DNA of 5,876 bases from the IMG/VR virus record IMGVR_UViG_3300028481_000068. One strand, given 5' to 3'. Origin of the DNA: a virus. Taxonomy: Duplodnaviria; Heunggongvirae; Uroviricota; Caudoviricetes. The notes beneath the pieces were generated by a model. It was not told where the DNA came from, did not search any database, and saw nothing but the letters and a program-made list of their open reading frames with translations. A program made the position numbers and the translations under genes. Position 1 is the first letter of the stretch. Each line of letters opens with the position of its first letter. Shown piece after piece: positions 2,642-5,359 of this stretch.

Positions 2642-2872
2642 ATGAGCGATAACGGACATTTCGATTTCAAAAAGCACTGGCTTGCACTTACTCCGGATGA
2701 GCGTGAAGCCTTCGCACAGGAAGCCGGAACGACGAGTCACTATATCCAGACTCACTTAACAGGTAAGCGCAAAATGCCAGGTAAGGTATTGATGAATGGG
2801 CTTTTTAAAGCCTGTAAAACAAGACAATGGCTGCGCTCAAAAGCAGAACTGGCATACTTCTTCTACTCATGA
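2642..2872 (+). CDS. Cro-like small HTH DNA-binding protein, 76 aa
   Basis: ORF-track protein MSDNGHFDFKKHWLALTPDEREAFAQEAGTTSHYIQTHLTGKRK... Divergent from the repressor across the operator region and followed by an intrinsic terminator. Called Cro-like from size, position and a putative HTH; family not verified. Confidence 0.55.
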   Translation: MSDNGHFDFKKHWLALTPDEREAFAQEAGTTSHYIQTHLTGKRKMPGKVLMNGLFKACKTRQWLRSKAELAYFFYS

Positions 2873-3022: not shown

Positions 3023-3223
3023 ATGGAAATCATTACACGTATTGATGCCGCAAAGCGCGGACTTAAACGCTACTACACCGGAAAACCATGTAAGCACGGA
3101 CATGACAGTGAACGCTGGGTTTACAACGGACACTGTGTTGAGTGCACCATGGAATCAAACCGTCGCATCAGGGCAGAGATTAAGCAGATCATGATTAATT
3201 CCTCCCCACAACATTCAAGCTGA
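3023..3223 (+). CDS. Small Cys/His-rich putative zinc-binding protein, 66 aa (cII-like position, function unknown)
   Basis: ATG 3023 with AGGG 6 nt upstream; I prefer this over the ORF-track TTG start at 2960. Protein MEIITRIDAAKRGLKRYYTGKPCKHGHDSERWVYNGHCVECTMESNRRIRAEIKQ... has a C-x-H-x-H ... C-x2-C arrangement. Confidence 0.5.
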   Translation: MEIITRIDAAKRGLKRYYTGKPCKHGHDSERWVYNGHCVECTMESNRRIRAEIKQIMINSSPQHSS

Positions 3224-3238
3224 TAGCGGAGATTAATC

Positions 3239-4054
3239 ATGAGCAGACATGCAACAGATTGGGCCTGGGAGACAGATCCAGGCAGCTCATCATTAAAGCT
3301 CATACTGCTCTCGATGGCTGACAGAGCCGATGAATATAACCTCTGCTACCCCAGCATAGAACGCCTCGTTAAAGACACTTGTCTGAATAAAAAAACCGTG
3401 CAGGCCGGACTTATATCGCTCATGAAAATGGGGCTTATTTCAGATACCGGAGAGAGAAAGGGAGCGACGAAAAGAGTGCGGGTTTTCTCTCTTAATATAA
3501 CCAAAAAAGGGAACATTAAAGGCAACCTAGAAGGACGTAATGAACCCGAAAACGGTAATGTTCCCGAAAACGGGAATATACCCAAAAACGGGATGTTGAA
3601 TGATCCCAAAAACGGGATGTTGAATGATCCCAAAAACGGGATCCAGAACCAGTCATATAACCAGTCATTTAACCAAGAGAGGGAGAGCAGGACAAAAACC
3701 GGGGATTCTGTGCCTCATGACCCCGGCGCAAACAACGCCGTGATGAATAACTTTGTTCCTCCTGGTGGGCCAGGGCAATTAGGCAAATTTGTCATGCATG
3801 AACAATGGCAGCCATCAGATGACTTTCTTCGGAAAAGCTCATTGCAGGGGATCTACCTGGACAGTATGCCAACGGCACAGGAACTTGCAGAGTTCAGAAT
3901 TTACTGGATGGCTGAGGGTAAGGCATACCATCAGGCACAGTGGGAGCAGAAGCTGGCAAGGCGGCTGCAGATTAGCAGACAGAAGCAATCAACATTACCT
4001 GATAACAACGTTCCGCACTGGAACAGCCCTGAAGCATGGGAGGATTTCTTGTGA
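3239..4054 (+). CDS. Replication initiator, lambda O-like: N-terminal HTH origin-binding domain, repetitive linker, C-terminal domain of the DnaT/O type; 271 aa
   Basis: ORF-track protein. SD GGAG lies 7 nt upstream of the ATG. The linker NGNVPENGNIPKNGMLNDPKNGMLNDPKNG is encoded by the iteron array, as with ori inside lambda O. It lies immediately upstream of, and overlaps, the P-like gene. Domain names are from memory. Confidence 0.75.
   Translation: MSRHATDWAWETDPGSSSLKLILLSMADRADEYNLCYPSIERLVKDTCLNKKTVQAGLISLMKMGLISDTGERKGATKRVRVFSLNITKKGNIKGNLEGRNEPENGNVPENGNIPKNGMLNDPKNGMLNDPKNGIQNQSYNQSFNQERESRTKTGDSVPHDPGANNAVMNNFVPPGGPGQLGKFVMHEQWQPSDDFLRKSSLQGIYLDSMPTAQELAEFRIYWMAEGKAYHQAQWEQKLARRLQISRQKQSTLPDNNVPHWNSPEAWEDFL
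3545..3645. repeat. Iteron array: five direct repeats of core CCC(G/A)AAAACGG(G/T)A at 18-, 18-, 24- and 24-bp spacing; putative origin of replication
   Basis: Copies start at 3545, 3563, 3581, 3605 and 3629. Copies 3 and 4 are identical over 24 bp. Each core carries a CCCG/CGGG dyad around an A-tract. Followed by the tandem AACCAGTCAT(A/T)T x2 (3647-3670). Located inside the O-like coding sequence. Confidence 0.75.
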
Positions 4055-4836
4055 ACAACGTTTTTACCGCGATACAAAACCGTGACGGAGAAGCCCTTTC
4101 TCGCATGTCAGGTTATGAGCATCAGTACACTAACAATGACAACGTGGTGAACATGTCAGCAGAGAGGCTTGTTGATGCCCTTTTCAAACAGTTGAAACAA
4201 CTGTTTCCGGCGGCAGTGGTAACCAACCTGAAGACGCCAGAGCAGGAAGTTGCTGCAAAACAGCAGTGGATTGCTGCGTTTGCCGAAGGGGGGATCCGAA
4301 CCCGTGAACAGGTTTCTGCTGGTATGCGCCACGCCCGCGCCAGTGAATCTCCGTTCTGGCCGTCGCCAGGGCAATTTATCAAGTGGTGCAAAGACAGCAA
4401 GATGGTTCTTGGCGTCACCATTGACGATGTGATGGCGGAGTTTCACCGGTACAGCAAGGAAAAAAGTTTATATCCTGGTGGTCCCGAAAGATTCCCGTGG
4501 CGGCATCCGGTTATGTACTGGGTCGTATGTGATACCCGCCGTGCAATGTATCAGCGCCAGCTTAGCGAGATTGAGGTTGAGAAACACGCGCGCAGGATGC
4601 TCGATGATTGGGCGAAAAAGGTGGCTTCCGGACAGCAGATACCCGATCCGGTGATCAGCATACAGGCAAAGCCAGAGCCCATGAGTACACCTCCGGACAC
4701 AGGGAGAGACGTTTACCATCCACCAGGGCGAAGTTTCGGGTGTATGCCTAACGCCGCCACCCTGGGGGGAATAACACCGGCGCAGTGGCTGATGGAGGAA
4801 TACAGGCGGGGAAAGGCGTCAGGATTTATCAAGTAA
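4051..4836 (+). CDS. Replication protein P-like (replicative helicase loader), 261 aa
   Basis: The segment AAKQQWIAAFAEGGIRTREQVSAGMRHARASESPFWPSPGQFIKWCKD matches my recollection of lambda P (...RRQWVLAFRENGITTMEQVNAGMRVARRQNRPFLPSPGQFVAWCRE...). I chose the GTG start at 4051: GGGAGGA lies 6 nt upstream and it overlaps the O-like stop (GTGA). The ORF-track ATG at 4036 is an alternative. Confidence 0.85.
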   Translation: MNNVFTAIQNRDGEALSRMSGYEHQYTNNDNVVNMSAERLVDALFKQLKQLFPAAVVTNLKTPEQEVAAKQQWIAAFAEGGIRTREQVSAGMRHARASESPFWPSPGQFIKWCKDSKMVLGVTIDDVMAEFHRYSKEKSLYPGGPERFPWRHPVMYWVVCDTRRAMYQRQLSEIEVEKHARRMLDDWAKKVASGQQIPDPVISIQAKPEPMSTPPDTGRDVYHPPGRSFGCMPNAATLGGITPAQWLMEEYRRGKASGFIK

Positions 4837-4953: not shown

Positions 4954-5298
4954 ATGAGAAAACAGATACAGGCTCTTGGTCGACTCAAAACAGGCCAGAT
5001 GAACAAAACAGAATCTGCGTATTGCCAGCACCTTGAGCTGCGTAAACGTGCAGGAGAAATCGCCTGGTATCGATTCGAGGGTATCAAGCTGCGGTTAGCT
5101 GACAACACGTTCTATACGCCCGATTTTGCTGTGATGCTCGCCACCGGCGAGATGGAACTGCACGAAGTGAAAGGTTTCTGGACCGACGACGCCAGGGTGA
5201 AAACCAAAGTCGCTGCAGATCAGTATCCGTTCAGAATCATCGGGGTAACTGTTAAGCCAAAGAAAGCAGGTGGTGGCTGGAACATCGAAGAGTTCTGA
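4954..5298 (+). CDS. Small PD-(D/E)XK-fold nuclease-like phage protein, 114 aa (possibly DUF1064-type)
   Basis: ORF-track protein with FYTPDFAV ... MELHEVKG, which fits a PD ... E-x-K motif. First gene downstream of the operator-flanked promoter. DUF1064 naming is from memory and unverified. Confidence 0.6.
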   Translation: MRKQIQALGRLKTGQMNKTESAYCQHLELRKRAGEIAWYRFEGIKLRLADNTFYTPDFAVMLATGEMELHEVKGFWTDDARVKTKVAADQYPFRIIGVTVKPKKAGGGWNIEEF

Positions 5299-5338
5299 AT
5301 CGACGATCTTTTTAGTTATCAATGTAATCAATAAGTTA

Positions 5339-5347
5339 TGTGGATAA
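5339..5347 (-). promoter_or_regulatory. Perfect DnaA-box consensus TTATCCACA (minus strand)
   Basis: Plus strand reads tgtggataa at 5339-5347, 13 bp upstream of ATG 5360 and abutting its SD. A single 9-mer may be chance. Confidence 0.25.
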
Positions 5348-5359
5348 GCGAGGGTAAAG

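Follow-up and report, generated by a model that had tools for sequence, protein, structure and literature searches.

A 5,876-nucleotide stretch of viral DNA (IMG/VR record IMGVR_UViG_3300028481_000068; the whole stretch is referred to here as the window) represents the early region of a temperate phage or prophage of Escherichia coli that resembles phiV10 and epsilon15 (Uetakevirus), and one of its genes encodes a replication initiator whose central portion is specified by a dense array of short direct repeats. We asked whether these repeats act as DNA or are only the coding sequence of a repetitive peptide and, if they act as DNA, what purpose they serve. Our analysis indicates that the array is likely to be the replication origin of this phiV10-like phage, carried inside the gene for its own initiator. 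Judged from its sequence, it is very probably an undescribed member of the lambda-type origins that lie within initiator genes.

The array consists of five exact copies of CCCRAAAACGGK, all on the plus strand, preceded by a degenerate copy, ACCAAAAAAGGG, with two mismatches (Table 1). The start-to-start distances between the six copies are 45, 18, 18, 24 and 24 bp. When up to two mismatches were allowed, the window contained seven matches to CCCRAAAACGGK against an expectation of 1.6 ± 1.3, and none of 200 dinucleotide shuffles of the window reached seven. Tandem Repeats Finder reported an 18-bp period at 3537–3591, a 24-bp period at 3581–3642 (2.6 copies, 100% identical) and, directly downstream, a 12-bp period at 3647–3675 with the units AACCAGTCATAT and AACCAGTCATTT and a decayed third unit, AACCAAGAGAGG; together the iterons and the 12-bp repeat span 3500–3682. 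As read from the sequence, the cores are short dyads around a centre of four or five A residues, with CCCG/CGGG arms in copies 1 and 2 and ATCCC/GGGAT arms in copies 4 and 5. Every copy lies in frame 0 of the initiator open reading frame (ORF) and is translated as T-K-K-G or P-E/K-N-G, such that the iterons code for residues 88–134, between the HTH_36 and DnaT domains of the protein. The degenerate copy is a real sixth iteron because phiV10, BP9 and most IMG/VR relatives have ACCAAAAACGGG, which is nearer to the consensus. Thus, a preliminary description of this DNA, which had listed five cores, a possible sixth, identical 24-mers for the final two full copies, dyads with A-tract centres, a 12-bp repeat immediately downstream and a location in the linker-coding part of the gene, was accurate in each of these respects.

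The initiator matched PHROG 1032, 'replication initiation protein' (2.2e-107), and Pfam profiles placed an HTH_36 domain at residues 18–67 (1.8e-10) and a DnaT domain at residues 184–252 (8.2e-16). In a phmmer search against PDB, residues 180–265 aligned with residues 85–170 of E. coli DnaT (E = 4.6e-21; entries 9zbt, 4ou6 and 2ru8). The database names 'primosomal protein I' and 'DnaT' fit only this C-terminal third. HTH_36 was found in 64 of 64 full-length homologues and the DnaT C-terminal domain in only 3 of the 64, and the family of the N-terminal domain comprised 3,732 cluster representatives at E ≤ 1e-3 and roughly 555 clusters at E ≤ 1e-10. The product of the next gene belongs to the lambda P family of helicase loaders (Pfam Phage_lambda_P, PF06992, 1.4e-56; PHROG 109, 'P-like helicase loader', 8.6e-92). 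The initiator gene had previously been called O-like; the role and layout implied by that name stand, whereas the family does not, the Pfam domains being HTH_36 and DnaT rather than Phage_rep_O.

We found that the HTH_36-type N-terminal domain always travels with the array, whereas the C-terminal domain is swapped freely. Edwardsiella phage GF-2 carries the window-type N-terminal domain and an array of ATCCCAAAATTGGGAT with a P gene downstream; its C-terminal region aligned poorly with that of the window, scored no DnaT domain and looks lambda-O-like by eye. In Acinetobacter phage AB1, a DnaB-like helicase gene lies downstream of the initiator gene. Conversely, Enterobacter phage Tyrion, a member of the same phage genus as the window, matches the window in P and in the DnaT domain at the C-terminus of its initiator; the N-terminal domain of that initiator is unrelated, and we found no CCC-N6-GGG-type array in its gene. 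HTH_36 initiators at 28% identity (Stx2a_F403/Min27-type phages and Salmonella phage SI5) have a different dyad, GGGCAGGAGCTGCCC, present two to three times at the same position with 21–24 bp spacing. At the level of sequence, this co-inheritance of the array with the N-terminal rather than the C-terminal domain is the pattern expected of initiator-specific iterons. Lambdoid origins were first related to O proteins by the same logic, as PMC7466680 supports.

Two small records with iterons, NZ_CP148379.1 from E. coli (8,461 bp, circular) and NZ_CP130688.1 from Klebsiella (8.6 kb), have a dicA/cro/ydaT/initiator (HTH_36 plus DnaT)/P module as their only recognizable replication genes, which provides circumstantial support for an origin in the module. 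These records may be natural lambda-dv-like circles or assembly artefacts. The Tyrion initiator gene bears repeats of a different kind in its linker-coding part (locus L009, about 1465–1500): a short tandem repeat, GGATCAGGGATCAGGGATCAGGGA, and a two-copy repeat of 16 nt. These may be the origin repeats of that phage. In the Stx2a_F403/Min27-type and SI5 loci (L155, 1590–1700; L156, 1592–1680), the GGGCAGGAGCTGCCC repeats are followed by GAACCTATCA and GAACCAGTCA units, and the gene 3′ of the initiator encodes a large primase/helicase-type replication protein instead of P.

The weightiest evidence came from more distant relatives. Searching phage records by tblastn with the N-terminal domain as query, together with scanning one genome per species, yielded 71 loci with N-terminal domains 33–62% identical to the query, from Edwardsiella, Vibrio, Acinetobacter, Marinomonas, Pseudoalteromonas, Proteus, Providencia, Wohlfahrtiimonas, Burkholderia and other hosts. 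CCC-N6-GGG dyads with an A/T-rich centre occurred at 13.8 per kb in the 330 bp past the domain compared with 2.2 per kb elsewhere, and an unbiased 6-mer enrichment recovered GTCCCA, TCCCAA, CCCAAA and AACGGG. Start-to-start spacings of 24 bp were commonest (57 cases), ahead of those of 17 bp (19) and 18 bp (11). The 233 dyad sites were distributed over all three reading frames (142 in frame 0, 56 in frame 2 and 35 in frame 1). The corresponding translations P[KE]NG, xQKR and PKT[EGD] were seen 187, 63 and 37 times in the linkers of 120 mutually distant cluster representatives, compared with 0, 4 and 0 times elsewhere; in the Klebsiella relative NZ_CP130688.1, which has the same domain architecture, CCCAAAAACGGG is read both as QKR and as PKNG within one gene. 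Within frame 0, CCC, the A/T tract and GGG persist through changes of the third residue (N, I, F, V or S), and the A-tract is the best conserved part of the site. The flanks differ by lineage and remain complementary (GTCCC..GGGAC, ATCCC..GGGAT, CACCC..GGGTG and CCCCC..GGGGG). Flank complementarity reached 0.55 and 0.61, where the null expectation was 0.30 and 0.40, and none of 2000 shuffles matched the observed values; dependence among the sites of one locus and of related loci means that this significance is overstated. The occurrence of the motif in all three frames, the residue changes and the palindromic flanks together show that it is the DNA, not the peptide, that is conserved. The palindromic covariation fits a dimeric DNA binder, which strengthens the earlier suggestion that the initiator would bind the cores as a dimer.

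The 12-bp repeat had been treated as a side remark in the preliminary description. Its presence was correct but that status was not, as the repeat proved to be a conserved second element. One to three GAAYCNNYCA units were present on the plus strand directly past the last iteron in 66 of 73 loci, with a spacing of 12 or 13 bp and a density of 5.0 per kb in this zone versus 0.053 per kb elsewhere. All three frames are used, so that in Vibrio phage Her identical DNA is translated first as QNQS and next as EPVI, and at many loci an A-run, AAAAATAAAAA, continues after them. They are also found in the distant subfamily with different iterons (Stx2a_F403 and SI5), and they are absent from the Tyrion initiator gene and the lambda O gene. 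The element is not significant in the window alone and acquires its weight from the family comparison.

The 12-mers lie at a position of low duplex stability in the family. Nearest-neighbour calculations averaged over 43 loci showed an instability peak (z = +1.8) starting about 15 bp past the last iteron and about 60 bp long, where lambda has its AT-rich unwinding region. In the window, only two 40-mers of the gene are less stable than the segment 3641–3681, and the AT skew peaks at 0.53 over 3640–3699. A more speculative possibility, which we put forward tentatively, is that the tandem 12/13-mers (RGAAYCNNYCAW; in the window GAACCAGTCATAT and AACCAGTCATTT) are more than AT-rich filler and form a sequence-specific second origin element of a very large family of HTH_36-type phage initiators, serving as a defined landing or unwinding site of which one strand is recognized by a conserved part of the initiator or by the host helicase/loader complex. 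They would then be comparable to the 13-mers of oriC or RK2 or to DnaA-trios. Combined with the filament-forming DnaT-like domain, such an element would make the initiator a two-domain, DnaA-like protein in which a reader of double-stranded DNA is joined to a filament former on single-stranded DNA (ssDNA). The conserved 12/13-mer element is the part of the locus most likely to hold something new.

Among close relatives the array varies in length. A scan of virus contigs gave near-identical loci and was used for copy-number statistics alone. BP9 is one 24-mer short of the window, and there are three 12-mers in phiV10. Chain lengths in the 120 closest database proteins span 271 to 311 residues in steps of four to eight, with 5–10 PxNG units, and 82 arrays from IMG/VR and GenBank contain 4–9 iterons and one to three 12-mers; copy number ranges from 4 to 10 among near-identical prophages. 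In these prophages the three right-hand 24-bp units are invariant, suggesting concerted evolution.

Some minor features of the array were also recorded. Within the array, polymorphism among near-identical prophages is greatest at 3513–3544 (GGCAACCTAGAAGGACGTAATGA), the gap of the 45-bp interval between iterons 0 and 1. A perfect 10-nt inverted repeat brackets iteron 1; its arms, GGGAACATTA at 3509–3518 and TAATGTTCCC at 3556–3565, are formed by the flank to the right of iteron 0 and the one to the left of iteron 2, and it may be a by-product of the dyads. Minus-strand ORFs over the array (3346–3633 and 3516–3668) and terminator-like matches at 3589–3632, also on the minus strand, were rejected as by-products of the repeats.

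The closest known counterpart is ori-lambda, considered here in lambda and in the Stx phages 933W and P27. Both systems have dyad direct repeats with C-run and G-run arms and an A-rich centre, located in the linker-coding part of the initiator gene, spaced 18–24 bp apart and oriented with transcription. In both, the repeats are followed by a purine-skewed segment of lower stability, only moderately low in the window, and then by a lambda-P-family loader gene. The lambda iterons (ATCCCTCAAAACGAGGGA) occupy the equivalent place in O and resemble the window dyad, and iteron number also differs between relatives in that group, with four in lambda and six in Stx phages (PMC7466680). Like a lambda-type origin, the window locus has at least three dyad direct repeats in an ORF between the parts coding for the N- and C-terminal domains, a lambda-P-family loader encoded directly downstream, and a repeat sequence that is specific to, and co-inherited with, the DNA-binding domain. 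The coupling of motif to domain, the use of three frames, the covariation of the flanks and the low-stability segment seen across the family all argue for the earlier proposal of an ori-lambda layout inside the initiator gene. The systems differ in that the window initiator's C-terminal domain is DnaT-like rather than a lambda O C-terminus, the initiator scores in Pfam as HTH_36 instead of Phage_rep_O, and the segment 3′ of the iterons contains sequence-specific tandem 12-mers and is far less AT-rich.

In lambda, O dimers bind and bend the dyad iterons, the resulting O-some destabilizes a neighbouring AT-rich, strand-asymmetric segment on supercoiled DNA, O recruits P–DnaB, and transcription from pR activates the origin (PMC5043065, PMC7466680). 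As the locus has every sequence-level counterpart of lambda, we propose the same sequence of events. Our data show the anatomy of the repeats, the domain architecture and the conservation of both repeat classes as DNA alongside the N-terminal domain; from these we infer that binding, bending, unwinding and helicase loading take place at the array. Dimers of the N-terminal winged-helix domain would bind each dyad (ATCCC, A-tract, GGGAT). Five to six filled sites, 18–24 bp apart and with intrinsically bent A-tract centres, would fold the DNA into an O-some-like complex that stresses the adjoining less stable segment (the tandem GAACCAGTCA 12-mers plus the purine-rich tract), and this segment would open. 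The tethered DnaT-like C-terminal domains would capture the single strand and, jointly with the lambda-P-like loader from the neighbouring gene, would deliver host DnaB. Since the DnaT-like domain is homologous to an ssDNA filament former, iteron-bound initiators may hold the opened strand themselves, in a DnaA-like manner, before or while P delivers DnaB.

Several observations weigh against an origin at the array. The literature that we searched contained no binding, footprint, replication or marker-frequency data for the phiV10-like group. The segment 3641–3681 is only moderately unstable (−50.0 kcal per 40 steps, about +1.5 standard deviations, versus +3.3 for the lambda AT-rich block), and stability is lowest, among all 40-mers in the gene, at the array's left edge (3482–3522); for both reasons, unwinding at the 12-mers of this particular phage is proposed with caution. 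In 62 near-identical arrays of equal length, iteron cores were no less polymorphic than spacers (6/72 versus 10/87 positions, p = 0.6), a sample that is too shallow to speak to constraint. The non-independence of sites noted above also applies to the shuffle statistics in general. The initiator had no match to Pfam Phage_rep_O (PF04492), to which lambda O scores 123 bits, and BLASTP between the initiator and lambda O found nothing significant; published HHpred work describes the lambda O N-terminus as HTH_36-like, and neither lambda O nor the window N-terminal domain has a solved structural relative for comparison. Finally, CCC and GGG are 6 bp apart in the window dyad and 9 bp apart in lambda, and with sites 3 bp shorter the binding geometry is not transferable from lambda.

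The most serious alternative, which we nevertheless consider unlikely, is that the repeats are initiator-binding sites with a mainly regulatory role, such as autoregulation, a transcriptional roadblock, titration of the initiator or exclusion of related phages, and that the true origin is elsewhere. What the comparative evidence demonstrates is the coupling of a DNA site to the N-terminal domain, not initiation itself, and the segment 3′ of the array in the window is only moderately AT-rich. There is also an AT-rich intergenic gap at 5299–5359, where an IHF-consensus site, AATCAATAAGTTA, directly adjoins a perfect DnaA box on the minus strand, TTATCCACA (5326–5347), in a 40-mer that ranks among the least stable in the window. 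However, one DnaA box is no more than chance would give (89 of 200 shuffles), and the family-wide succession of iterons, tandem 12/13-mers, low-stability tract and a gene for a helicase loader or helicase is that of an origin rather than of an operator. Moreover, the same layout in lambda is an origin. Consensus scans for DnaA boxes and IHF sites found none within 1.6 kb of the array.

There is a very small chance that the repeat block is chiefly a recombination joint for swapping initiator modules between phages. C-terminal domains do swap directly 3′ of the block, and the lambda record has recombination points just to the right of its iterons. Such a role would account for a site of shuffling but not for a domain-specific dyad, a fixed spacing and a second conserved 12-mer; it is compatible with an origin at the array, of which it is probably a by-product. 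It is equally improbable that the repeats are a slippage-generated, low-complexity peptide linker (PxNG) without function as DNA. That all window copies are in frame, that copy number shifts by multiples of 12 or 24 bp, and that polymorphism does not spare the cores in close relatives would all be expected of such a linker. In the family at large, however, the motif encodes the unrelated peptides PKNG, SQKRN and VPKTE in three frames, the amino acid specified at the third codon shifts while CCC, the A/T tract and GGG stay, the flanks covary palindromically, and the motif changes or vanishes with the N-terminal domain, and on the frame and covariation data we rejected a pure peptide linker. The explanation that we find least credible, that the dyads are RNA hairpins in the early transcript affecting translation pausing or mRNA stability, was rejected because the fold of 3490–3690, although significant (z = −3.8 versus shuffles), is what palindromes necessarily produce, the stems are just 3–5 bp, there was no sense-strand G·U excess at symmetric flanks (15 versus 18, 2 versus 6 and 11 versus 32) and no Rfam match, the A-tract that would form the loop is the best conserved part, and a hairpin would have no reason to change along with the encoded DNA-binding domain.

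Comparison with other systems helps to define the candidate origin. The iteron plasmids (F RepE, R6K pi, RK2 TrfA and P1 RepA) likewise have initiator-specific repeats adjoining an unwinding element, and in RK2 this element consists of sequence-specific 13-mers (PMC5043065). Plasmid iterons are non-palindromic, monomer-bound and usually helically phased, and they are located beyond the rep gene, accompanied by DnaA boxes and IHF sites, whereas the sites here are dyads with 17, 18 or 24 bp spacing inside an ORF with no DnaA box or IHF site nearby. Thus the array does not correspond to a Rep_3-type iteron plasmid origin. The E. coli DnaT domain, which the C-terminal part of the initiator resembles, forms filaments on ssDNA in the replication-restart preprimosome (PMC13377028). 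The N-terminal half of the initiator is an unrelated winged-helix region and the gene lies in a phage replication module; the protein does not have the full-length similarity, including the N-terminal oligomerization domain, of a DnaT orthologue. DopC/DopE of Cellvibrionales and Oceanospirillales share the combination of HTH_36 with a DnaT C-terminal motif, encoded directly 5′ of a lambda-P-family gene (Brezellec et al. 2017, PMC5509034). In that work, DopC is reported to lack iterons and to lie away from the GC-skew origin; it is inherited vertically on the chromosome, whereas the window gene is a mobile prophage form with a full array and does not represent the domesticated state. The window gene complements the DopC/DopE domestication story with a mobile ancestor in which the iterons are intact.

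Of 5,426 complete E. coli genomes, 424 (about 8%) carry the initiator gene, within phiV10-like prophages, where it is annotated only as 'DnaT-like ssDNA-binding domain-containing protein'. Our reading would assign an origin to these phiV10/epsilon15-like prophages and to a gene known only as 'DnaT-like' or 'primosomal protein'. It also provides a recognizable origin signature, dyad iterons followed by tandem GAAYCNNYCA units, for an initiator family of hundreds to thousands of clusters in Gammaproteobacteria, and it explains the odd, length-variable PxNG, QKR and PKTE repeats of these proteins, the peptide being a by-product of a DNA element in whichever frame. The array offers material for mini-replicons, for studies of incompatibility and exclusion, and for comparing the use of a DnaT-type domain at an origin and at a stalled fork. 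In the literature searched, we found no description of the window-type iterons or of the 12-mer element; CCCAAAAACGGG had no occurrence and the other motif strings appeared only in unrelated papers, with subscription journals outside the search, so that a prior description is possible.

Table 1. Positions of the candidate origin and of neighbouring features in the 5,876-nt window.
Feature	Positions	Strand	Basis or remark
PD-(D/E)XK (DUF3799) nuclease-like gene	477–1298	minus	
Two-HTH repressor gene	1903–2487	minus	
Promoter-like site 5′ of the cro-like gene; candidate early rightward promoter, transcripts head towards the array	2588–2616	plus	Consensus scan only
cro-like gene	2642–2872		
Small ORF	ends at 3223		
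Replication initiator gene (271 aa), holds the entire candidate origin	3239–4054	plus	ORF list, Pfam, PHROG
Coding region of the N-terminal winged-helix HTH_36 domain, presumed iteron-binding	3239–3502	plus	
Iteron 0, degenerate, ACCAAAAAAGGG	3500–3511	plus	
Iteron 1, CCCGAAAACGGT	3545–3556	plus	
Iteron 2, CCCGAAAACGGG	3563–3574	plus	Relatives often ACCGAAAACGGG
Iteron 3, TACCCAAAAACGGGAT with flanks	3581–3592	plus	
Iteron 4, ATCCCAAAAACGGGAT	3605–3616	plus	Part of 24-bp unit
Iteron 5, ATCCCAAAAACGGGAT	3629–3640	plus	Final copy
Tandem 12-mers GAACCAGTCATAT / AACCAGTCATTT / AACCAAGAGAGG, GAAYCNNYCA element	3646–3682	plus	Candidate unwinding position
Purine-rich tract (about 80% A+G), extends the low-stability segment	3671–3700	plus	Read from sequence
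Coding region of the DnaT-like C-terminal ssDNA-binding domain	3776–4033	plus	phmmer versus PDB
lambda-P-family helicase loader gene, overlaps the end of the initiator gene	4036–4836	plus	
DUF1064 resolvase-like gene	4954–5298		

The gene order of the window matches that of phiV10 (Table 1), and the segment containing the initiator and loader genes (3239–4836) is 97.5–98.6% identical to phiV10, PAS61, phiv142-3 and other relatives. Promoter-like sites, such as the one 5′ of the cro-like gene, were no commoner in the consensus scan than in shuffles. Between the cro-like gene and the operon of the small ORF and the initiator there is a GC-rich hairpin with a T-run (2894–2913), for which the phiV10 annotation gives a rho-independent terminator; rightward transcripts must read through it to reach the candidate origin. 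On the minus strand, the PD-(D/E)XK gene adjoins an upstream region that is a RecT-family gene in relatives, and the phiV10 RefSeq record labels the PD-(D/E)XK/RecT region as a RecE/RecT fusion. A complete phiV10-like genome whose initiator is also 271 residues long has been deposited as a circular E. coli plasmid (NZ_CP079771.1, 41,027 bp).

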